Both the position numbers and the translations under genes were made by a program. Of a stretch of DNA of 8,624 nt, positions 1-8,624 are shown in pieces. The stretch's first letter is position 1; each line of letters starts with the position of its first letter. A model generated the notes under the pieces. That model was not told the origin of the DNA. It worked only from the letters and a program-made list of their open reading frames with translations, and made no database searches. Where the stretch lies: the NCBI GenBank assembly GCA_017609745.1, contig JAFCDK010000048.1, positions 1 through 8,624 on the forward strand, given 5' to 3'. Source of the DNA: Candidatus Pacearchaeota archaeon. GTDB lineage: Archaea > Nanobdellota > Nanobdellia > Pacearchaeales > GW2011-AR1.

Positions 1-940
1 CAAATCTTATTCTATTTCTTTCTTGGATTGCTTTTTTGATTTCTTGAACAGGAGTTTGAGAATTTGCACAACTTTTTGAGGTTGAAGGCTTATTTTCTGT
101 TGTTCCACAATTGTTTAACTCATTACATGTTCGAATTTGTTGTTCATTTGTACAAGGTCCCCACCCTGTACAGTTCCAATCTTCTATACAAACACTAACA
201 GTGCAACTTTGACTTTCAGAAGGCTTATTTTCTGTTGTTCCACAAGAATTTGAATCTGTGCAAGATCTTGTCTGTTGATTGTTTATACAAGTAGACCAAT
301 CAGTACACTGCCAGTTTTCAGTACAAGTAGTATCACTAGTTGGGATTAAGTTTATAGAACTTCGTGAATAAAGAGCTTTTAATGTTGAGATACCAGTGTT
401 TATTGTATCATATCCTTCTTTGATTATTTCCCAACTATAAGTTCCTGTATTCAATCTTTGAACAGCAAATCCCTCTTCATCGGAAAGAGTGCTGGCCACT
501 TCAACTCCTTCGGATAAGAATTTCACTATTGCACCTTCAATAATCTGACCGGTAGTGGAATCTTTAATTGTTATAACATAAGTTCCTTCATTTGCCTCTT
601 GTAAATTAAATGTTAAAGTCTGGTCTGCTTCACCAATGATTACTGTTTTTACTTCCTGTTCAAAGTCTTTTTTGCCTGCTAAAGCTGTGTAAGTTCCAGG
701 ATTGAGTGTAAAAGTAGCTTTTCCTAAAGAATCAACGACTTCTGTACTAATTGTAGTTGTATGGCCTTTATGAAATTCTAATGGGCTATCAACTTGTCCA
801 GAGAGTATTATAATTGCAAGGGACGTAATAGGATTCTCATTCATATCATTAACCGTAACTTCAAGAGTAGATGCAGAAATTAAATTGGTAATTGAAATAA
901 GTATGACCATTACTAACATTAAAACAACTAATTTTTTCAT
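1..940 (-). CDS. Secreted cell-surface protein, 3' end truncated by the window edge: signal peptide, two carboxypeptidase-regulatory-like/PEGA-like beta-sandwich segments, two 45-aa Cys-rich modules
   Basis: Absent from the supplied ORF track because no stop lies in the window. My own translation from the ATG (complement of 938-940) stays open to base 2 (313 codons). It begins MKKLVVLMLVMVILISITNLISAS (Lys-Lys plus hydrophobic core, a Sec-type signal). Then come segments such as GTYVITIKDSTTGQIIEGAIVKFLSEGVEVASTLSDEEGFAVQRLNTGTYSWEIIKEGY, typical of CarboxypepD_reg/PEGA folds. Then come TCTENWQCTDWSTCINNQQTRSCTDSNSCGTTENKPSESQSC and VCIEDWNCTGWGPCTNEQQIRTCNELNNCGTTENKPSTSKSC. Confidence 0.8.
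   Translation of the reverse strand, partial: MKKLVVLMLVMVILISITNLISASTLEVTVNDMNENPITSLAIIILSGQVDSPLEFHKGHTTTISTEVVDSLGKATFTLNPGTYTALAGKKDFEQEVKTVIIGEADQTLTFNLQEANEGTYVITIKDSTTGQIIEGAIVKFLSEGVEVASTLSDEEGFAVQRLNTGTYSWEIIKEGYDTINTGISTLKALYSRSSINLIPTSDTTCTENWQCTDWSTCINNQQTRSCTDSNSCGTTENKPSESQSCTVSVCIEDWNCTGWGPCTNEQQIRTCNELNNCGTTENKPSTSKSCANSQTPVQEIKKAIQERNRIRF
56..325 (-). repeat. In-frame tandem coding repeat, 2 x 135 nt (45 codons), encoding the Cys-rich module, with a 27-nt perfectly identical core
   Basis: GAAGGCTTATTTTCTGTTGTTCCACAA occurs at 84-110 and again at 219-245, an offset of 135 nt or 45 codons. The first Cys codons of the two modules (complements of 188-190 and 323-325) show the same offset. 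The outer boundaries are approximate. Confidence 0.8.
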
Positions 941-1347
941 AAAATAAATATAGAACATGTATTTATAAATCTTATCAAATTCCCAAGCCCACTAGCAAAC
1001 TCACAACAAGTGCGATTGCTATTCCCACTATGACTTCTAAAAGCTTCTAAAAGTGTATGATTAAATTCTCCTCGAATTTCTCTTATATGTATTAAGTCGC
1101 TTATTACAATTATTGCAAAAAATAAGGATACAAAAAACAAGTTGCTAAATTCTTCAAGTAAATAAATACTAAAAACTACTGCAGATACAATAGCTGTATG
1201 TGTGCTGGGCATGCCTCCATATTGTCTGCAGAGGATTTTGAGAATATATTTTTTTCTTTTAACAACAGCAATAAGGAATTTAATAAATTGGGAAATAAGA
1301 AAAGAAAATACTACACTTAATACTATTGGGTTTGTTATGAAAGACAT
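937..1347 (-). CDS. Divergent PAP2 family (YuiD/DUF212-like) integral membrane protein with a frameshifted C-terminus (possible pseudogene or assembly error)
   Basis: GGMPSTHTAIVSAV matches the family signature GGMPSSHSA, and DLIHIREIRGE...NHTLLE parallels B. subtilis YuiD DATGVRRHAGE...GHQPIEV (recalled from memory). After HTLLE the listed frame gives non-hydrophobic residues (AFRSHSGNSNRTCCEF...). The alternative frame gives the expected last helix, VIVGIAIALVVSLLVGLGI, followed by a stop at 975-977. The start lies 6 nt after the eif2g stop. Confidence 0.8.
   Translation of the reverse strand: MSFITNPIVLSVVFSFLISQFIKFLIAVVKRKKYILKILCRQYGGMPSTHTAIVSAVVFSIYLLEEFSNLFFVSLFFAIIVISDLIHIREIRGEFNHTLLEAFRSHSGNSNRTCCEFASGLGNLIRFINTCSIFIL
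962..969 (-). promoter_or_regulatory. TATA-like box TTTATAAA 22-29 nt upstream of the surface-protein ATG (940)
   Basis: The palindromic TTTATAAA at 962-969 lies in the 34-nt stretch between the inferred native PAP2 stop (975-977) and the ATG at 940. AT-rich background makes chance matches common. Confidence 0.35.
1034..1053. repeat. Perfect 10-bp tandem duplication CTTCTAAAAG x2 (plus strand) inside the PAP2-like gene
   Basis: Read directly: 1034-1043 and 1044-1053 are identical and the flanking bases differ. Ten is not a multiple of three, so the duplication shifts the reading frame. Confidence 0.95.
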
Positions 1348-1353
1348 TTCAAA

Positions 1354-2565
1354 TTATAAAACTTCCCCCCACCCAATCAACCTCCAGTGATTGTTAATGT
1401 TTCTGGCAATTCCAATACAATCTCCTTTAAATGAAACAACAGGGATTTTAAGACTGAGTTCAATTTCTTTATTATCTTTGCTTATTTTTTTTATTGTTCC
1501 TACAGTTGTTGTTGTGTTTACTGAGAGCATTAACATTTCAGACATTTTTAATTGGTCTACTTTTTTAGTATTGTCAAGTCCTAAAACTTGTTTAAATAAA
1601 TTTGTTTTTAATTTAATATTCTCTGTTGTGTTGGGAAGCTTATTTGCTAAACCCGCGACTTGTCCTGATAAAGAATCTGCTTTTGCTAATGACATATCTA
1701 ATTGAGTTTCAATTGCTAGACTGCCTCCTGGACCTGCTTGTTCAACACTATATTTTCCTCTATGCATTGAAACTATTTTTGTTTTCAAAGTTTCATTAAT
1801 TTCTTGGTTTTGTTTTATTATTGTAATTCCCGGCTTTATTTCAATCTCATCTCCAATTTTGAGTTCTCCTTTTTTTAATGCTCCTCCTAAAACAGCCCCC
1901 TTAAGTTTGCTTGCATCTGTTCCAGGTTTGTTAATATCAAAACTTCTTGCAATTATGAAAATAGGCTCTGATTTTTCATTTTTTCTTGGAATTTTAAGTT
2001 CACAGAGAATTTCTAAAATTTTATTTATATTAATTCCTTGTTGTGCAGAAACAGGAATTATCTCTGATTTTTCTGCAATTGTGCCTTTAACAAATTCTTT
2101 TATTTCAGCATAATTTTTTTCAGTTTGTTCTTTTGAAACTAAATCTATTTTATTCTGAATAATTATGATATTTTTAACATCTTTAGATTCTAAAGCCATT
2201 AAATGTTCTTTTGTTTGAGGTTTTATGCCTTCATTAGCAGCTATAACTAAAATAGCCGCATCTATAATTGCTACTCCAGAAAGCATTGTTGCCATTAACA
2301 TTTCGTGTCCAGGAGCGTCAACAAATGTAACATAACATTCAGGTTTTCCTTCGCCTTTAATATTATATTCTTTTCCTTTTTTGTATATAACTGCATCTGC
2401 GTAACCTAACTTAATTGTAATTCCTCTTTTAAGTTCTTCAGAATGAATATCTGTCCATTGTCCAGTTAATTGCTGGAGCAAAGTAGTCTTGCCATGATCT
2501 ATATGCCCTACTATGCCAATATTCATTATAGGCAGTTTTGATATGTCTATATTAGGTTTAGCCAT
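1354..2565 (-). CDS. eif2g: Translation initiation factor aIF-2 gamma subunit
   Basis: GTPase motifs GHIDHGKT (G1), DAPGHE (G3) and QNKIDL (G4). There is near-collinear similarity to Pyrococcus aIF2-gamma as I recall it (HSEELKRGITIKLGYADA, PQTKEHLMAL, RSFDINKPGT, GGVLGG-like GAVLGGAL, C-terminal RWRLIGWG). 403 aa. Confidence 0.95.
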   Translation of the reverse strand: MAKPNIDISKLPIMNIGIVGHIDHGKTTLLQQLTGQWTDIHSEELKRGITIKLGYADAVIYKKGKEYNIKGEGKPECYVTFVDAPGHEMLMATMLSGVAIIDAAILVIAANEGIKPQTKEHLMALESKDVKNIIIIQNKIDLVSKEQTEKNYAEIKEFVKGTIAEKSEIIPVSAQQGININKILEILCELKIPRKNEKSEPIFIIARSFDINKPGTDASKLKGAVLGGALKKGELKIGDEIEIKPGITIIKQNQEINETLKTKIVSMHRGKYSVEQAGPGGSLAIETQLDMSLAKADSLSGQVAGLANKLPNTTENIKLKTNLFKQVLGLDNTKKVDQLKMSEMLMLSVNTTTTVGTIKKISKDNKEIELSLKIPVVSFKGDCIGIARNINNHWRLIGWGEVL

Positions 2566-2596: not shown

Positions 2597-3121
2597 TTAT
2601 TGTATAACTGGTAATGCCTGAAGTTTTTTTCTACTTAAATCATCTATAAGCAGAGATTTGTTTATTTTTCTATAAAACTCTGCAGAATCTGAAATATTAC
2701 TTCTTGAATCAAGAGCTTGTCTTATTATTTTTTTATATTCTTCTCCTGTGGTTTCAGCATATTCTAAAAAAGGATTAATTTTTGAATTTATTCCACCATA
2801 TATTATAGCATCTCTACTAAATCTTTCCCATGTTTTTACAAATTCTCGTCTTTTTTGAATTGAATAAGGGTTTCTCTGCACTTCGTCTTTAGCTAATCCG
2901 AGAATTTGTGAATTAAAAATTAATCTTGTTTGAAGATTTTTACCTCTGTCAATTTCTTCTTGTTGTCCTTTTGTTATTAATCCTTCTTCGACAGAATAAG
3001 GAAATGTTAATGTTCTATCAGAAGGAGGATTATTAATTGCATCTTTAATTCTTTTATTGATTGCTTGTTCAGCAAAAAACTTTCTCATTTTCTCTCTATT
3101 ATTTATATTGGCTTTTTTCAT
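2597..3121 (-). CDS. Hypothetical protein, 174 aa, with no family I recognise
   Basis: A long ORF that exactly fills the space between rps6e and eif2g. Its ATG (3119-3121) directly abuts the rps6e stop (3122-3124). The protein is Lys/Arg/Glu-rich and contains no Cys and no His. The only competing ORF is an antisense shadow. Confidence 0.65.
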   Translation of the reverse strand: MKKANINNREKMRKFFAEQAINKRIKDAINNPPSDRTLTFPYSVEEGLITKGQQEEIDRGKNLQTRLIFNSQILGLAKDEVQRNPYSIQKRREFVKTWERFSRDAIIYGGINSKINPFLEYAETTGEEYKKIIRQALDSRSNISDSAEFYRKINKSLLIDDLSRKKLQALPVIQ

Positions 3122-3673
3122 TTACTCTTCACTTTTTTCTTCTGGTTTAGTTTCCTCTTTTATTTTTTGTTTTTCTTCTGGTTTTAATTCTTGTAGTTTT
3201 TCAGTTGTAGTTTCTGCGGGCTTTTTAACTGAGGTTTCAGAACCTTTTTCCTTTTTTCCTTTAACTTGGTCAGGAAAAACTTCAGCCAATGTTTTTTCAC
3301 CTGCTTTAAGAACATTAAAATTAATTTGAACTGTGTCTCCTGAAATTGTATTTCCTCTAACAGATTTTTTCATTCTAAGACCTTTTGGTTTGTTTCTTCC
3401 TTTTTTCTTTTTTCCTTCTTTTTTTGGTTTTTTCTTAAATCCTTTGCTGTATGTGAGTAGAACTTTTCTTAATTCAGTACCTTCTTGGTTTGCAAGTGAT
3501 GGAAAACCTGCTTTATCACTTGCTCCAGTTAATTTTAGTTCATAATTTTTTAAGTCAGGAAGCAGGGTTTCGCCTTTAATATTTTCACCAATTTTCATTC
3601 CAATAAGGTTTTCACTGTCTAATTCAAAATAATATGTTTTTCCTTTTTCTGAGATATTAATTTTAAATACCAC
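3122..3673 (-). CDS. rps6e: 30S ribosomal protein S6e with a Lys-rich internal insertion and a roughly 48-aa K/E/T-rich C-terminal tail
   Basis: FKINISEKGKTYYFELD...LIGMKIGENIKGE...YELKLTGASDKAGFP...VRGNTISGDTVQINFNV follows the archaeal S6e pattern. The start codon is GTG (complement of 3671-3673). At 183 aa it is longer than the roughly 125-135 aa archaeal S6e I recall. Confidence 0.9.
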   Translation of the reverse strand: MVFKINISEKGKTYYFELDSENLIGMKIGENIKGETLLPDLKNYELKLTGASDKAGFPSLANQEGTELRKVLLTYSKGFKKKPKKEGKKKKGRNKPKGLRMKKSVRGNTISGDTVQINFNVLKAGEKTLAEVFPDQVKGKKEKGSETSVKKPAETTTEKLQELKPEEKQKIKEETKPEEKSEE

Positions 3674-3928: not shown

Positions 3929-4633
3929 ATGGGTTTTATTCTAAACTTTCTTATGAAAATGAGACCATTAAAAAAAACACTGGCCGGATTTTTTGCCCCT
4001 TTAGTAATGACAGCAGGACTTTCACTTAGTGCAGTTAATTCTGCTATAGCAGATGATAATAAATTAGAAACTCAATTACAGAGAAATGAACCCAAAAAAT
4101 GCAGATTAGTTGAAAAAGGAGTTTTAGTTTCTTATGGATATGGAAATGTGAATAATCAAAAAACAGATGGTCCATATGAAGTTAGCTCTGTTATGGGGAG
4201 ACTTGGGTGGGATATTAAACCTTTTGTCGAGGATAAATTACATTTACATCCAAAGGGAAAATTAACTGGATTAGTAGAGCCTTTTACAAGTGCTGTGACA
4301 AGCCCAGATAATAATTTTGAAGTAGGTCTTAATTTACTTGCCAAATATAATTTTAGAAATGAGAATAAAAAACCTGTTAGTTGGTTGGACAAAATTGACC
4401 CATATATTGAGGGGGGATTTGGAGCTATTTATGCTTCACAAGATTTTAAATATCAATCAACAAAAGGCAATTTTCTCGTGCAAGTTGGAGCAGGTTTAGA
4501 TTATAATTTAAATGATGATTTCTTGGTTTTTGTAGGAGTAAGAAGAAGGCATTTTTCAAATGCTAAAATACAACAACCAAATCGTGGAGTTGATATAAAC
4601 CAACTAATTGTTGGAGGAAGTTGGAAATTTTGA
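3929..4633 (+). CDS. PagL-like acyloxyacyl hydrolase / lipid A 3-O-deacylase family outer-membrane beta-barrel homologue with an N-terminal signal peptide
   Basis: The signal is MKMRPLKK plus a hydrophobic core plus AIA/DD. Eight amphipathic strand-like segments are present: GVLVSYGYG, VMGRLGWDI, LTGLVEPFTSAV, FEVGLNLLAKYNF, PYIEGGFGAIYAS, FLVQVGAGLDYNL, FLVFVGVRRRHFS and QLIVGGSWKF. The protein ends in Phe. RRRHFSNAKIQQPNRGVD aligns with P. aeruginosa PagL RAIHYSNAGLKQPNDGIE (recalled), which holds the catalytic His-x-Ser (here His208 at 4550-4552 and Ser210 at 4556-4558). The true start may be 3953. Confidence 0.75.
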   Translation: MGFILNFLMKMRPLKKTLAGFFAPLVMTAGLSLSAVNSAIADDNKLETQLQRNEPKKCRLVEKGVLVSYGYGNVNNQKTDGPYEVSSVMGRLGWDIKPFVEDKLHLHPKGKLTGLVEPFTSAVTSPDNNFEVGLNLLAKYNFRNENKKPVSWLDKIDPYIEGGFGAIYASQDFKYQSTKGNFLVQVGAGLDYNLNDDFLVFVGVRRRHFSNAKIQQPNRGVDINQLIVGGSWKF

Positions 4634-4674
4634 TGTTTTGATATTTAATCTATTATAATTTATTCTAATAATTC

Positions 4675-4682
4675 TTTTATAT
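4675..4682 (+). promoter_or_regulatory. TATA-like TTTTATAT 22-29 nt upstream of the ATG at 4704
   Basis: Lies in the 70-nt T-rich spacer after the PagL-like stop. The oligo-T runs here could also act as an archaeal termination signal. Confidence 0.3.
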
Positions 4683-4703
4683 TCTTTTTCTTATATCTTA
4701 TTT

Positions 4704-5411
4704 ATGAGAGAAAAAGCAGTGAAAAGTTTGGAAAATATTCTTAATGTTGTTACAGGAACAGCATATTCTGATATAAAAGAAGTTTGTCGAGAATTTGAAA
4801 TTTTTTCAGATAAAAAAAAATGCATAAGAAATATTGCTAAGCTTGGTTTTTCTGTAGGTATATCTATTCCACCTTATGTTTTGGTTCATGAGTTTATGCA
4901 TGCTGGTGCTGCTAAATTATTAGGTGCAGATAAAATAAAAATAAGTTTAGATAATTCTGTTGGTGGTGGCTTGCTCGAAAAATTTATGCCGGTCCAAGGA
5001 GAAAATCTGCTTTTTGAAGAAAAATGTTTTGGTTATTGTGATTGGCGGGGGCTAAACAAAGTAGAAGAAACACTTACATTATATGCTCCTTATTTATTAA
5101 CGCCTATTGGAATCTCTATAATGTATGCAGGAATAAGGAAGAAGAATATTTATTTGACTGGTGTTGGAATGTTAGTTGGTATAAAACCACTTTTAGACTT
5201 GGGGTTTAGAGCATCTTTTGATTTGAGCCAATTTGGAATGAATATTTATTATGGTTTGTCAAACTATTTTTTCTTTCCTGAAAATCCTGGAGAAGTTACA
5301 AGAATTGCTTGTATGCTTGGGACTATGGCAGGAACTTATTATGTTAGCAAGAAAATTGTGAAAGGAGTTGGAAGAGGTTTTGAGAGATTAAGAATTAAAA
5401 ATAAACAGTAG
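4704..5411 (+). CDS. HExxH-motif membrane protein, putative zincin-like metallopeptidase (DUF3267-like)
   Basis: HEFMH (4887-4901) lies at the end of a hydrophobic segment: ISIPPYVLVHEFMHAGAAKLLGADKIKISL. Later hydrophobic segments include LYAPYLLTPIGISIMYAG and YLTGVGMLVGIKPLL. This layout resembles the HELxHxxxxxxxG-plus-LAP arrangement I recall for DUF3267. There is no signal peptide. Confidence 0.55.
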   Translation: MREKAVKSLENILNVVTGTAYSDIKEVCREFEIFSDKKKCIRNIAKLGFSVGISIPPYVLVHEFMHAGAAKLLGADKIKISLDNSVGGGLLEKFMPVQGENLLFEEKCFGYCDWRGLNKVEETLTLYAPYLLTPIGISIMYAGIRKKNIYLTGVGMLVGIKPLLDLGFRASFDLSQFGMNIYYGLSNYFFFPENPGEVTRIACMLGTMAGTYYVSKKIVKGVGRGFERLRIKNKQ

Positions 5412-5423
5412 AATCAAGATTAC

Positions 5424-6005
5424 TTAATTTTTGTATATCATCAGATATTTTTCCAACAAGTTTTTCAATTGACATTTTTCCAAAAAATCTTGGTTCTCCA
5501 AATCTAATAATTGCAAGTTTTTTGGAATTGGAAGAAACGACGCATGTTTTTTAAAATAATATAATCTTGAATATTCTAAACCTGCAGGAACTAAAGATAT
5601 TGGTGTTGAAAGTTTTTCCTGCATTTGCTCAAAATATTTAAATGGATTGATATTTAATTTGCTCATTTTTTTTGCATTAATTTTACCTTCTGGAAACATT
5701 ATAATAAGTTCATTATTTTGTAAATAATCTTCAATTTTTGCATATGATTCTCTATTTATTTGTTTTGCAATTTGTTTTGCTTTTTCTCTTCCTATCTTTT
5801 CACTTAATTTTTCAAAATCTTTACGAGTTACAAATTTAATTCCCCCAACACTTTCTAACCAGCTTGGTAAAGTAGATTTTGCAAAAAAACTGCAATATCT
5901 CTTAGTTTTTGTTTTAATATAATATGCAGAAAGTAATCCATCAACATATGACCGATGTTTTGGGAGAATAATAGCAGGACCATTTTTTATAAAAAACATG
6001 AGCAA
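5424..6005 (-). CDS. PlsC/LPLAT-family acyltransferase (1-acyl-sn-glycerol-3-phosphate acyltransferase-like), C-terminal main part
   Basis: All four acyltransferase blocks are present: H-RSYV-D (HxxxxD), GGIKFVTR (GxxFxxR), MFPEG (FPEG) and ISLVPAGL (hydrophobic-Pro block). The listed start is TTG, and HxxxxD sits only 17 residues from it. That is too close for a complete fold and implies a missing N-terminus (see 5941-6129). Confidence 0.75.
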   Translation of the reverse strand: MLMFFIKNGPAIILPKHRSYVDGLLSAYYIKTKTKRYCSFFAKSTLPSWLESVGGIKFVTRKDFEKLSEKIGREKAKQIAKQINRESYAKIEDYLQNNELIIMFPEGKINAKKMSKLNINPFKYFEQMQEKLSTPISLVPAGLEYSRLYYFKKHASFLPIPKNLQLLDLENQDFLEKCQLKNLLEKYLMIYKN

Positions 6006-6129
6006 GATTAAGTGCTGTGCTTATAGAATTATATAAAAAATAATTTCTATTGTCTTTAAAAAGTTTGTTAGATTCAATTTGAGAATTATTTTGTTTTTTT
6101 TGTAATAAATGTTTTTCAAGAGAGTTCAT
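5941..6129 (-). pseudogene. Probable N-terminal fragment of the same acyltransferase in another frame (gene split by a frameshift)
   Basis: The 62-aa ORF overlaps the start of the 193-aa ORF. Removing one base from either homopolymer at 5983-5996 (plus strand TTTTTTATAAAAAA) joins ...NSISTALNLAHVF to IKNGPAIILPKHRSYVDG. The result is a continuous 234-aa protein with HxxxxD near residue 58, which is typical spacing for PlsC. Confidence 0.5.
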
Positions 6130-6152
6130 TTTTAATAAAATAAAATAGTTTG

Positions 6153-6160
6153 AAATTATA
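6153..6160 (-). promoter_or_regulatory. TATA-like box (minus strand TATAATTT) 24-31 nt upstream of the ATG at 6129, overlapping the radical SAM stop codon
   Basis: The gap between the radical SAM stop and the acyltransferase-fragment ATG is only 26 nt. Co-transcription without this box is equally plausible. Confidence 0.25.
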
Positions 6161-7616
6161 ATCTTTCTTCTAATCCAAAATTAACTAAACATTCTTTATA
6201 ATTTCTTGCATTTTCACATACAGCCTCGTAGATTGGACCAGATACACACTGCTCTGCGCCTTTATATGAACCATGAACATTATGTTTTTCTACAATATTC
6301 TTTAATGTTTCAGGATTATCAACATAAGGGCAGGGGGCTAATAAGTTTTTATTAAAAGGCTGTTTTGTTCTTGCATCTTTTAACCAATCTGCGGTCATAC
6401 ATTCTGTCAATGTTTTATCATATAAATTATCTTTTGAAAAAGGAATAAAAGCACAAGGTTCAAGTTCTGCATTAGCATTTATATGAGCATATATTTTCCC
6501 CCATCCAATACATCCTCCTGTAATTCCCCCATCGTTCCAGAAATCATATAATGCCATTTGTTTTTTATCTTGTCTTATTTTTTTAAGTAAATCATATCTT
6601 TGTATTCTTTGTTCAGGAGTAGGAATTATTTCAGGATTAGGGTTTCTTCCAACAGCAGTATATTGGAAAAGCCAGCCAATACGAGCACCTCTTTCAATTA
6701 GCTCATCAAAATATTGTTCATTTACTACAGAATCATGATTTTGTTTAGTATGAACTGCTGAGATTCCGAAAAAAACTCCCCTATCTTTTAAACGAGCCAT
6801 AGCATCCATCACTTTATCATAGACTCCTTTGCCTCTAAAATACTCTGTTGCTTGTTTATCACCAGATAAACTAAAACATGGATAAAAATTTCCAAGTTCT
6901 GCTATTTTATCTGCCATTTGGTCGTTAATTAAAGTTCCATTTGTATAAGGCATAAATGCAATATCATTATGTTCTTCAAGCATATTATAAAGATAAGGAA
7001 GCATTGTTGGTTCTCCACCTGTTAAAACAATAAAATGTATTCCCATTTCTTTTTTAGCTTCATTTAAAATTTCATTTACTTTTTTTTCAGGTATTGTAAT
7101 ACCTTTTTGATGTTCTGCCCAGCAACCTTGACATTTTAAATTACAATTCATTGAAGGACTCATAAGAAGAAATTGCGGCGGAAGTTCTCCATGTTTTTTT
7201 TCATATTGTTCTGCAATTTCTGTTCTTTCGAGTGTCTGACGATAAAACAAATTTTCAATTAATTTTAATCTTGTTTGATTATTAAGTTCTGGAAGAGTTT
7301 GTTTTATAACATTTGAGAAAGAACTACAAGATTGTAATTTTCTTTCAACCTGCTCTGGACTCCAGCCATATTTTTTACCACTTTCCTGTATTTTTGAAAG
7401 ATATTTGTTTCTTGCTATATCAATAAGGCTACCTTGATATTTTACAGGAATCTTGGGAAAAAGAGGCAATGCTGCTTTTATTCCCCCTTTAACAATTGAT
7501 TTTCTTATTAAACTAAAAATTTTAGACCCATTCCTATTAGTGTTTTTTTTAATTAATTCTGGTTCTACAAATTCAACTTTTTTTTCAAGTTCTATTGCTA
7601 GCCCTTCTTTTGCCAT
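6156..7616 (-). CDS. Radical SAM enzyme, 486 aa, with a roughly 150-aa N-terminal extension and a Cys-containing C-terminal auxiliary region
   Basis: The motif C158-x3-C162-x2-C165 (MNCNLKCQGCWA, nt 7122-7145) is followed by the GGE SAM-binding motif (LTGGEPTM). The C-terminal region GGCIGWGKIYAHINANAELEPCAF...LLAPCPYVDNPE carries further Cys at residues 369, 388, 406, 429, 457, 467 and 476, consistent with an auxiliary Fe-S (SPASM/twitch-like) domain. Confidence 0.85.
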   Translation of the reverse strand: MAKEGLAIELEKKVEFVEPELIKKNTNRNGSKIFSLIRKSIVKGGIKAALPLFPKIPVKYQGSLIDIARNKYLSKIQESGKKYGWSPEQVERKLQSCSSFSNVIKQTLPELNNQTRLKLIENLFYRQTLERTEIAEQYEKKHGELPPQFLLMSPSMNCNLKCQGCWAEHQKGITIPEKKVNEILNEAKKEMGIHFIVLTGGEPTMLPYLYNMLEEHNDIAFMPYTNGTLINDQMADKIAELGNFYPCFSLSGDKQATEYFRGKGVYDKVMDAMARLKDRGVFFGISAVHTKQNHDSVVNEQYFDELIERGARIGWLFQYTAVGRNPNPEIIPTPEQRIQRYDLLKKIRQDKKQMALYDFWNDGGITGGCIGWGKIYAHINANAELEPCAFIPFSKDNLYDKTLTECMTADWLKDARTKQPFNKNLLAPCPYVDNPETLKNIVEKHNVHGSYKGAEQCVSGPIYEAVCENARNYKECLVNFGLEERL

Positions 7617-7637
7617 TATTAATTTTTGTTTAATTAC

Positions 7638-7645
7638 TTTAAAAG
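7638..7645 (-). promoter_or_regulatory. TATA-like box (minus strand CTTTTAAA) 22-29 nt upstream of the radical SAM ATG (7616)
   Basis: Lies in the 138-nt divergent spacer 7617-7754. Confidence 0.3.
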
Positions 7646-7728
7646 TATTTGTATTGTGTATTAATTATAAAATAGTATATTTTATGGTGCATTATATTTC
7701 AATAATATTTATATAATCATTTATTTAA

Positions 7729-7736
7729 TTTAAAAT
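7729..7736 (+). promoter_or_regulatory. TATA-like TTTAAAAT 19-26 nt upstream of the alpha/beta-hydrolase ATG (7755)
   Basis: Lies in the same divergent spacer as the radical SAM box. AT-rich background applies. Confidence 0.3.
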
Positions 7737-7754
7737 AAATTAAAAGATGAGAAA

Positions 7755-8624
7755 ATGGTTGAAGAAACTAAAGATTTAAAGGAGGGATATTTTAAGAGTT
7801 TTGATGATTCGCAGATTTATTATAATTTATATAATTCTAAATTTGATAAACCTTTTGTAACATTTGTTCATGGACATTCTGGAGGAAATTTTACGATGTT
7901 TAATCATCAAATTGAAGCTGTATCTAAAGATTATAATGTTCTTGCTTTTGATTTGCGCGGAGGTGGAAGATCTGAATTAAGTAATGGAAAAAAAGATTTT
8001 TACAGTTTAGAGAATTTTGCGAGAGATACTCTTGGTTTAATGGAGCATCTTGAAATAGAAAGAACACATCTATTAGGTTATAGTTTAGGCACAACAATTG
8101 CTCTTAAAGTCTTTGATATGCAACCAGAGGTTATCGATTCATTAATTTTACTGAATCCTACATATAATCTATTAGGAAATACTTGTTTAATAAATCAGAT
8201 GATTGTTCGTAGTGGTTTATGCTCTATTTTAGAACATTCTATTAATTATACTGCAGCTTTTATAAATAAATTAAAAGGTGTTGAACCAACACTCTTTGAT
8301 TATTTAAATGTTAGGGGAGAAAATTCATATATTAATTTCACTTTTTTAAAAACAAGAACTCCTGAAGAATTAATGTCAAGATTAAATCTTGTTAAAAATC
8401 GTATTAAATGGAATATAGAAGAAGTTATTGATAAAATTGATGTTCCTTTATTTTGTATTAGCGGAAGCAAGGATATATGGACTATGCCTTCTGCTGCTAA
8501 AGAAATTGTACAAAGAGCAAAAACAGACAGTGAAGCAGTAATTATTGAGGGAAATGGGCATGCAGCTCTTTATTTAAATCCAGAACCAATTACTAAAGAA
8601 GTTTTAGATTTTTTAAAAAGGCAA
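7755..8624 (+). CDS. Alpha/beta-fold hydrolase (esterase/lipase-type Ser-Asp-His enzyme), 3' end runs off the window
   Basis: Absent from the ORF track because no stop lies in the window. My translation from ATG 7755 is open for 290 codons: MVEETKDLKEGYF...FVTFVHGHSGG (HG oxyanion motif), LLGYSLGTTIAL (GxSxG nucleophile elbow), FCISGSKDIW (Asp) and EGNGHAALY (His). Confidence 0.85.
   Translation, partial: MVEETKDLKEGYFKSFDDSQIYYNLYNSKFDKPFVTFVHGHSGGNFTMFNHQIEAVSKDYNVLAFDLRGGGRSELSNGKKDFYSLENFARDTLGLMEHLEIERTHLLGYSLGTTIALKVFDMQPEVIDSLILLNPTYNLLGNTCLINQMIVRSGLCSILEHSINYTAAFINKLKGVEPTLFDYLNVRGENSYINFTFLKTRTPEELMSRLNLVKNRIKWNIEEVIDKIDVPLFCISGSKDIWTMPSAAKEIVQRAKTDSEAVIIEGNGHAALYLNPEPITKEVLDFLKRQ

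Follow-up and report, generated by a model that had tools for sequence, protein, structure and literature searches.

The separation of archaeal ether-isoprenoid lipids from bacterial ester-acyl lipids, the 'lipid divide', is a long-standing theme, and there is the further question of how DPANN archaea without lipid synthesis come by their membranes and adapt them. The present analysis concerns positions 3929–8624 of contig JAFCDK010000048.1 from a Candidatus Pacearchaeota archaeon (8,624 nucleotides (nt); this whole stretch is called the window), where genes for a PagL-like protein, an HExxH protein, an acyltransferase, a radical S-adenosylmethionine (rSAM) enzyme and an alpha/beta hydrolase follow one another. 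A first-pass annotation had read these genes as one island for stripping, re-acylating and modifying foreign acyl lipids. We read the interval, with a probability of about 0.5, as a junction, where the edge of a putative DPANN cluster for acyl-lipid tailoring, containing an Mss-like rSAM enzyme, adjoins PagL-like and HExxH genes specific to a subclade, and where the acyltransferase gene and the nearby DUF212 gene appear to have been inactivated.

Some rSAM enzymes are known to couple lipid tails. Mss, the bacterial membrane-spanning lipid synthase, joins fatty acyl chains tail to tail in the absence of oxygen and is represented by the T. ethanolicus protein WP_129545148.1 and the T. maritima protein Tmari_0825/WP_004080829.1 (PMC13159169). 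The archaeal tetraether synthase Tes (GDGT-MAS) likewise couples lipid tails and is, according to the literature, only remotely akin to Mss. The published description of Mss gives six conserved blocks in words: CNxxCxGC (I), GGE (II), an N/S/R-Gly-rich block, N/S/RGxG (III), Trp followed by P, Q and R (IV), D-F, Y, H, N and VEPC (V), and three Pro with Cys (VI) (Sahonero-Canavesi et al. 2022, PMC13159169). For Woesearchaeota, homologues of Mss have already been proposed in print, as has the modification by DPANN archaea of lipids taken from bacterial hosts (PMC13159169, PMC11868695). Ornithine lipids are made by the olsH-olsG-olsI operon of the planctomycete Singulisphaera, which encodes a GH3 protein, a PmtA-related N-methyltransferase and an alpha/beta hydrolase acting as an O-acyltransferase; OlsH is a GH3-type lyso-ornithine-lipid synthetase using a free (3-hydroxy) fatty acid and ATP (PMC12493201). 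The first-pass annotation knew of no described archaeal system with its gene set. With respect to Mss and host-lipid modification this has been overtaken by the publications above, while the cluster as such was not found described: the literature searched held no account of the DPANN cluster architecture, of a resemblance to OlsH/G/I or of an outer-membrane-type PagL in an archaeon.

The features of the interval are as follows.

3929–4633, plus strand: PagL-like protein (Pfam PagL, 63.1 bits, and OMP_b-brl)
4704–5411, plus strand: HExxH protein, recognised by its motif only, family-less
5416–6129, minus strand: lysophospholipid acyltransferase (LPLAT) gene, disrupted; open reading frame (ORF) 5424–6005 (Pfam PF01553, 39.4 bits)
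6156–7616, minus strand: rSAM enzyme of 486 amino acids (aa) with CNLKCQGC (Pfam, 69.9 bits)
7617–7754: AT-rich divergent intergenic region between the rSAM and hydrolase genes
7755–8624, plus strand: alpha/beta hydrolase (Pfam Abhydrolase_1, 70 bits), cut by the window end

All five genes were found at or near the places given by the first-pass annotation, its motifs (HFSN, HEFMH, HRSYVD/FPEGK, CNLKCQGC and GYSLG) were recovered, and its domain calls (PagL, LPLAT, rSAM, alpha/beta hydrolase and a PAP2-like DUF212 protein) agree with Pfam.

The CNLKCQGC motif of the rSAM enzyme is encoded at nt 7122–7145 and is followed by GGE, W..PTPEQR, DFWNDG, Y.H.N, EPCAF and PCP. In a 19-sequence alignment the first motif reads C158-N-L-K-C162-Q-G-C165, with C, N, C, G and C invariant, and the other invariant residues include G200-G201-E202, N243, S249, R261-G262, G264, W315, Q336-R337, D358-F359, Y376, E386-P387-C388, P420 and P428-C429. 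These invariant columns match the six Mss blocks one for one, the Mss side of the comparison being a verbal description. A length of about 450–490 aa and the elements CNxxCxGC, GGE, W..P.QR, DF, Y.H.N, VEPC and PCP are, going by that description, common to both.

Hundreds of full-length relatives of the enzyme were found (E ~1e-90, 36–45% identity; 36–40% for the many proteins of Firmicutes, Atribacterota, Omnitrophota and Actinomycetota). Their hosts are anaerobic Firmicutes (Moorella, Ammonifex, Desulforudis, Halanaerobiales and Syntrophomonadaceae), Atribacterota, Omnitrophota, Actinomycetota, Armatimonadota, Caldisericota and a few archaea, and DPANN-type contigs carry a tighter group at 50–54% identity. 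The hosts shared with Mss are anaerobic Firmicutes, Atribacterota, Omnitrophota, Caldiserica and Armatimonadota, and the spread as a whole matches that of the published Mss phyla, Woesearchaeota and Pacearchaeota included (PMC13159169, PMC11868695). A relative is present in more than 587 GTDB species; the best 80 of these matches were examined, and none of the 80 comes from Thermotoga or Thermoanaerobacter. T. ethanolicus was also missing from the best 120 matches of a search seeded with the Moorella mulderi protein, the rSAM cluster look-ups returned no M. thermoacetica entry, and the exact sequence of the window rSAM has no database record. In a proxy comparison, members from Moorella, Ammonifex, Halanaerobiales and Atribacterota showed 36–41% identity to the window enzyme (E 1e-89 to 1e-96); the published criterion for homology is E ≤ 1e-50 and at least 30% identity to a confirmed Mss (PMC13159169). 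Membership of the window rSAM in the Mss family is strongly indicated, though not formally proven.

In an NCBIfam scan every model scored far below its curated cut-off, the AhbD, NirJ and peptide maturase models giving 55–63 bits. When the PDB was searched by sequence, SuiB, SkfB and a decarboxylase were the only matches (E 3e-8 to 3e-4), those to SuiB and SkfB being confined to the generic core. A Tes/GDGT-MAS identity was rejected, since the same search gave no match to a solved tetraether synthase. A peptide-modifying rSAM, which the first-pass annotation had named as an outcome that would speak against its proposal, was not seen; the invariant residues fit the published description of Mss.

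The genomic neighbourhood was compared by an all-against-all protein comparison of fetched loci and contigs carrying relatives (L001–L007, L010, L090 and L091; L001 and L002 were treated together, and L004 equals L010). At positions 5416–8624 begins, with its left edge, a cluster of some 12 genes that is conserved in Woesearchaeota-like (DPANN) archaea. L007, reached through the rSAM 90%-cluster member P0121, overlaps window positions 6078–8624 gap-free at 99.8% nt identity and therefore reveals the genes beyond the right end of the window. From the hydrolase onwards they are ordered alpha/beta hydrolase (ABH), MR_MLE, GH3, ABH340, u114, U310, methyltransferase, Hydrolase_4, isopropylmalate-synthase-like (IPMS-like), u153 and ApbA. 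An orthologue of the hydrolase (45–53% identity) is adjacent and divergent to the rSAM gene in four lineages (L001/L002, L004, L005 and L007). The LPLAT gene, which in the window is co-oriented with the rSAM gene, as the first-pass annotation had noted, and separated from it by 26 nt, also lies some 30 nt or less behind the rSAM gene in L001/L002 and in L091, two further DPANN lineages. A GH3-family gene, whose product carries the Pfam domains GH3, GH3_M and GH3_C, lies within 2 kb of the rSAM gene in L001, L004, L006 (directly upstream) and L007. A 207–211-aa methyltransferase, Hydrolase_4 and U310 are linked in L001, L004, L006 and L007, with U310 in L091 too. The IPMS-like gene and ApbA occur in L001, L004 and L007 (the copy at the end of L007 is cut), nitroreductase and short-chain dehydrogenase/reductase (SDR) genes in L001 and L004, and MR_MLE in L006 and L007.

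U310 is a secreted, family-less protein of about 290–345 aa that has a hydrophobic segment at its N-terminus and matches nothing in Pfam. Every full DPANN cluster conserves it at 38–49% identity, usually beside the methyltransferase gene:

L091, 1193–2131: U310
L001, 4015–4956: U310
L004, 10386–11360: U310
L006, 5862–6896: U310
L007, 3450–4325: U310

Unlike the DPANN gene, which is embedded among genes for the hydrolase, GH3, LPLAT and methyltransferase, the bacterial Mss-type gene is solitary. It stands alone in Ammonifex and in a Firmicutes metagenome-assembled genome, and no orthologue of the acyltransferase, hydrolase, GH3 or other cluster genes was found beside rSAM in 80 bacterial loci, so a conserved operon in bacteria was rejected. 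Locus L080 has a weak, distant LPLAT match about 2.4 kb from the rSAM gene. Near the L006 cluster, 4 kb from the rSAM gene, positions 9056–10982 encode an ATPase of the BcrAD_BadFG type (151 bits) together with a protein that matches DUF2229 and HGD-D at borderline scores. Domains of these types occur in PlsA and Ger (Ger/PlsA), bacterial enzymes of ether-lipid formation. Homologues of PlsA/Ger have been reported in Woesearchaeota too.

The lineages that carry the cluster share only about 50% protein identity, so the retention of its gene content implies selection. This bears on the possibility that the interval merely collects unrelated bacterial genes, acquired horizontally in a variable region and partly decaying, with no operating pathway. 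Two bacterial-type lipid genes, LPLAT and DUF212, are indeed broken (by two frameshifts and a 10-bp duplication, respectively), the sequence of the independent assembly L007 stops at 6078, within the acyltransferase gene, and the PagL clade is tiny, with a bacterial nearest outgroup. We consider this account quite unlikely, as the rSAM, hydrolase, PagL-like and HExxH ORFs are intact with conserved catalytic residues and the cluster content is kept across lineages.

The cluster resembles the planctomycete ols operon in its gene types. Both contain a GH3 acyl-amido synthetase, a small PmtA-related methyltransferase-like protein and an alpha/beta-fold protein, and in the archaea GH3 is clustered with methyltransferase and alpha/beta hydrolase genes in L001, L004, L006 and L007; of these partners only the first hydrolase falls inside the window, the GH3 and methyltransferase genes lying outside it. 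The sole NCBIfam match of the GH3 protein is OlsH (85.6 bits, E 2.6e-24, cut-off 620). The 340-aa cluster hydrolase, and that hydrolase only, has a weak OlsI match (31 bits, cut-off 385), and the methyltransferase matches the PmtA model over its full length (57 bits, cut-off 390), partial UbiE matches being stronger. The cluster SDR scores best against the lipid-related OleD and HpnA models. Beyond the three Ols types, the DPANN cluster has the Mss-like rSAM and an LPLAT, the family to which OlsA belongs; rSAM, LPLAT, U310, the IPMS-like protein and ApbA have no counterpart in the planctomycete operon. Unlike the Ols-bearing planctomycete, archaea are reported to have no aminolipids.

Judged by family-level similarity and gene linkage, the best-supported reading of the cluster is fatty-acyl lipid tailoring, possibly with N-acyl-amino-acid and/or tail-coupled lipids made from scavenged fatty acids as its product. 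The data show the family assignments, the synteny and the gene disruptions; we infer every substrate and the order of steps. The recurrent genes, namely the Mss-like rSAM, the divergent hydrolase, GH3, the PmtA/UbiE-like methyltransferase, Hydrolase_4, U310 and, in some lineages, LPLAT, would together tailor fatty-acyl lipids that the archaeon cannot make itself. GH3 would activate free fatty acids with ATP and join them to an amino acid, as OlsH does; use of free fatty acid and ATP by OlsH suits a fatty-acid-scavenging organism. The hydrolase-fold and/or LPLAT enzymes would add or remove ester-linked acyl chains in the manner of OlsI and OlsA, the methyltransferase would alter the head group like OlsG and PmtA, and the rSAM enzyme would couple two acyl tails through a 5'-deoxyadenosyl radical, as Mss does. 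An exported PagL-like barrel could act on the lipid A of a partner, or on acyloxyacyl lipids, and free (3-hydroxy)acyl chains bound there as esters. If this holds, N-acyl amino-acid lipids would be a specific, previously unconsidered product class for these archaea. The Mss homologues of Woesearchaeota, called 'enigmatic' in the literature, gain a defined conserved neighbourhood (hydrolase, GH3, methyltransferase, LPLAT and a secreted protein) that is clonable and directly testable.

Several observations weigh against a lipid-tailoring cluster. For GH3, hydrolase and methyltransferase alike, the scores fall far short of the equivalog cut-offs, and therefore only superfamily membership is established; the equivalog level of similarity to the Ols proteins is not reached (OlsH 85.6 against 620 bits, OlsI 31 against 385). 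The link between the rSAM enzyme and Mss is drawn from a verbal motif description and taxonomy. The DPANN loci L003 and L005 lack most cluster genes. The nearest characterised relatives of the window hydrolase are enol-lactonases and small-molecule esterases, not lipases. To our knowledge, archaea have no outer membrane or BAM machinery, which leaves the folding of a PagL barrel unexplained. Finally, the IPMS-like, ApbA, nitroreductase and MR_MLE genes have no obvious lipid role. As the lipid reading does not explain these four genes, a non-lipid alternative stays alive: the cluster may make or degrade a small molecule, such as an acid-amino-acid conjugate or a cofactor, on which the rSAM enzyme acts, the likeness to lipid enzymes being of superfamily level. 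The IPMS-like (392 bits), ApbA/PanE (182 bits) and BluB/nitroreductase-like genes are all of small-molecule types, the MR_MLE gene resembles racemases and cycloisomerases, the cluster hydrolases resemble enol-lactonases and lactonases, the rSAM enzyme does score against the AhbD, NirJ and peptide maturase models, and plant GH3 enzymes conjugate hormones, not lipids (PMC12493201). We nevertheless regard this alternative as unlikely: those rSAM scores are far below the curated cut-offs, the invariant residues of the family fit the Mss description, LPLAT lies within about 30 nt after rSAM in two lineages, and the SDR is closest to lipid-related models.

The acyltransferase has all four LPLAT motifs in its core segment: HRSYVD (HX4D), GGIKFVTR (the R-containing motif II), FPEGK and SLVPAG/LVPAG (motif IV), with 39.4 bits to PF01553 against a cut-off of 23. 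It shares HX4D, the motif II Arg, FPEG and motif IV with the PlsC/OlsA-type LPLATs of this family, and its intact orthologues, like those proteins, are about 230–260 aa long (263 aa in L091, 230 aa in L001). By sequence it is an LPLAT and not a demonstrable PlsC: AGP_acyltrn (TIGR00530) gives 23 bits against a threshold of 102.95, and the sole PDB relative of a three-orthologue profile is the distant T. maritima PlsC 5KYM (E 0.004). Of the PlsC/LPLAT acyltransferase named by the first-pass annotation, the LPLAT with its motifs stands, and a PlsC assignment is not demonstrable.

The full acyltransferase gene spans 5416–6129 and is split by two frameshifts, the 193-aa ORF being its middle part in a shifted frame. 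Searches by tblastn with the intact L091 and L001 orthologues located the N-terminal segment at 6129–5986 (frame −3), the core at 5987–5529 (frame −1) and the C-terminal segment at 5514–5416 (frame −3); the breaks fall at T6/A6 runs near 5983–5996 and at the A6 run 5518–5523. The window copy also lacks a strand of about 11 aa ('RIEYNGAENIP') that precedes HX4D in the orthologues. The PAP2-like gene at 937–1347, cited by the first-pass annotation as a putative lipid phosphatase, is confirmed as DUF212 (67.6 bits), with a match covering profile positions 2–96 of 126, but its reading frame is broken. A perfect 10-bp tandem duplication (CTTTTAGAAG twice, minus strand, nt 1034–1053) shifts the frame, and deletion of one CTTTTAGAAG copy brings back the canonical DUF212 C-terminal helix (ending in HTLLEVIVGIAIALVVSLLVGLGI and a stop codon; C-terminus LLEVIVGIAIALVVSLLVGLGI, stop).

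The lesions of both genes look like true mutations. Both shifts of the acyltransferase (2/2) lie in one gene among 59 coding homopolymer runs, and two homopolymer errors placed at random would both fall in this gene with a probability of about 0.02; the other genes are all intact, the independent assembly L007 shows no indels over 2,547 nt, and the 10-bp duplication in DUF212 is no homopolymer artefact. On the same grounds, sequencing error was judged the less likely cause of the acyltransferase frameshifts. With LPLAT and DUF212 disrupted, the 're-acylation' and 'phosphatase' steps envisaged by the first-pass annotation are therefore probably non-functional here. L007, which comes from another sample, ends at window position 6078, within the N-terminal part of the disrupted gene, possibly because strains differ at the acyltransferase; the contig of the window itself stops within the hydrolase gene.

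Judged by its sequence and a structural model, the PagL-like protein is predicted to be a genuine eight-stranded beta-barrel esterase of the PagL family (PF09411). The family score is 63.1 bits (E 3.9e-17) against a Pfam gathering cut-off of 23. The HFSN(A) motif aligns with HYSNA of the lipid A 3-O-deacylase PagL of P. aeruginosa (2ERV) in a direct sequence match; His208, Ser210 and Asp222 correspond to His126, Ser128 and Glu140 of 2ERV, which puts Asp222 at the position of the catalytic Glu. The H, S and N residues are invariant over 13 PagL-like relatives, and the acidic position is D, E or N. The N-terminus resembles a Sec-type signal peptide, the probable true start being Met11 at 3959, and the C-terminus ends in ...SWKF. 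An AlphaFold2 (AF2) model, predicted from a 4-sequence alignment, has eight strands with a predicted local distance difference test (pLDDT) value of about 85 in the barrel. Its best Foldseek match is 2ERV (E 1.8e-8, TMt 0.68–0.71), and the remaining matches are all bacterial outer-membrane barrels. The His-x-Ser-Asn motif, an acidic third residue, the signal peptide, the predicted eight-stranded barrel and a C-terminal aromatic residue are thus common to both proteins. The window protein differs in having Asp instead of Glu, a linker of about 45 residues from signal peptide to barrel and, as its host, an archaeon without known outer membrane, lipopolysaccharide (LPS) or BAM.

A word-index search of 5.8 billion clustered proteins found three relatives of the PagL-like protein at 57–73% identity, giving a clade of 4 close members. 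When 1.84 billion representatives were searched exhaustively with a profile, 639 relatives reached E ≤ 1e-3 and no more than 6 reached E ≤ 1e-30, and a metagenome scan with the PagL alignment gave three weak partial matches only. The nearest outgroup, P0240 (46% identity), lies on a contig with a bacterial-type tyrosyl-tRNA synthetase (TyrRS) with an S4 domain, PAP2 and AMP-binding genes, and one further relative is annotated Omnitrophota; these two relatives point to acquisition of the gene from bacteria. On locus L095 (1162–2888), whose contig has a TyrRS of bacterial type, a gene of the PAP2 family immediately precedes the nearest non-archaeal PagL-like gene; the pairing recalls sets of lipid A deacylase and phosphatase.

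The HExxH protein has its motif at H62-E-F-M-H66 (nt 4887–4901). No Pfam, NCBIfam or PDB match exceeded threshold (Peptidase_M50B, 14.5 bits against a cut-off of 26), and a single-sequence AF2 model was unusable (pLDDT 33). Its sole homologue among the fetched loci is on L090 (68% identity), likewise downstream of a PagL gene. Between these two genes, L090 encodes at 1762–2922 a 386-aa protein with a signal-peptide-like N-terminus and the C-terminus ...GISFKF, aromatic as in the PagL-like proteins. Possibly this is another archaeal barrel of the outer-membrane type; searches of PDB and Pfam gave no match for it, and hhalign against the PagL profile gave a non-significant probability of 3.5%.

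Positions 3929–5411 are two genes confined to a narrow subclade and adjoining the cluster. L090 has the order unk174, S6e, PagL, 386-aa secreted protein and HExxH, and L091 the order S6e, PagL, U310, acyltransferase and rSAM; in the three related lineages (window, L090 and L091) PagL always lies between the ribosomal protein S6e gene (rpS6e) and the cluster. PagL and HExxH are missing from the more distant DPANN loci L001, L003, L004, L005 and L006. Since rpS6e is equally syntenic beside PagL, the position of PagL says little on its function.

These distributions bear directly on the first-pass proposal that the PagL-like, HExxH, acyltransferase, rSAM and hydrolase genes form a single module acting on foreign lipids. 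In its favour, the genes do lie next to one another, four of their five families work on esters or acyl chains, PagL adjoins the core cluster gene U310 in L091 (PagL-U310-acyltransferase-rSAM), and L090 keeps PagL-(386-aa secreted protein)-HExxH. The proposal is nonetheless distinctly unlikely, given that PagL and HExxH occur on just three contigs, all close relatives whose housekeeping gene rpS6e shows the same degree of synteny, and are missing from five more distant loci that keep rSAM, that HExxH has no lipid link, that the acyltransferase is frameshifted twice here, and that PagL and HExxH lie on the strand opposite to acyltransferase and rSAM. Synteny beyond close relatives thus holds for the rSAM-acyltransferase and hydrolase-rSAM pairs and not for PagL and HExxH. 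The hydrolase for its part belongs to a rightward ABH-MR_MLE-GH3 unit, and the five genes are not one conserved unit. The idea of acyl-lipid chemistry in a DPANN archaeon survives for the rSAM/acyltransferase pair, while the boundaries and unity of the module do not.

Within the reading of the interval as a junction of cluster edge and subclade genes, a much bolder pathway can be drawn, which we consider highly unlikely. Woesearchaeota-like archaea living on Gram-negative bacteria would possess the first archaeal pathway for acyloxyacyl amino lipids, running from PagL through GH3, acylation and methylation to coupling. Secreted PagL would strip 3-hydroxy fatty acids off the partner's lipid A or ornithine-type lipids, GH3 would ligate them to an amino acid, the hydrolase-fold and LPLAT enzymes would add the second chain, a PmtA-like enzyme would methylate the head group, and the Mss-like rSAM would finally couple the tails into membrane-spanning lipids. 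Were it true, an archaeal membrane would consist partly of remodelled bacterial acyl chains. Action of PagL on LPS would in itself imply a Gram-negative bacterial partner for these archaea.

The window hydrolase is, by sequence, a generic Abhydrolase_1 enzyme with the nucleophile motif GYSLG (Ser110). Complete on L007, it has 302 aa and is the first gene of the ABH-MR_MLE-GH3 unit that runs rightwards past the window. Its best NCBIfam match is PcaD (98 bits, cut-off 256) and its best PDB match an enol-lactonase; the alpha/beta-hydrolase call of the first-pass annotation is retained. The divergent intergenic region 7617–7754 presumably holds the promoters of both units; GC-content around it (7501–8000) is 0.23. 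The window is AT-rich throughout (GC ~0.23–0.35), and scans for tRNA, Rfam families, promoters and terminators gave nothing exceeding background.

To the left of the interval, the following features were annotated.

3122–3673, minus strand: ribosomal protein S6e (domain search)
2597–3121, minus strand: 174-aa protein without family match, between aIF2-gamma and rpS6e
1354–2565, minus strand: aIF2-gamma (domain search)
937–1347, minus strand: DUF212 'divergent PAP2' gene (Pfam, 67.6 bits), outside the interval
2–937, minus strand: secreted CarboxypepD_reg-repeat protein, cut at the left end of the window

Two archaeal/eukaryotic markers, aIF2-gamma and S6e, show that the contig is archaeal. Its genes have their closest relatives on contigs labelled Nanoarchaeota or Candidatus Woesearchaeota, and these relatives suggest the DPANN placement. 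The 174-aa protein has a partial homologue in the same place beside S6e on L090 (41% identity over 61 residues). The protein at 2–937 contains CarboxypepD_reg-like domains followed by repeated Cys-rich units (C..W.CT.W..C...Q.R.C...N.CGT.E) and is probably a surface protein unconnected with the lipid genes.

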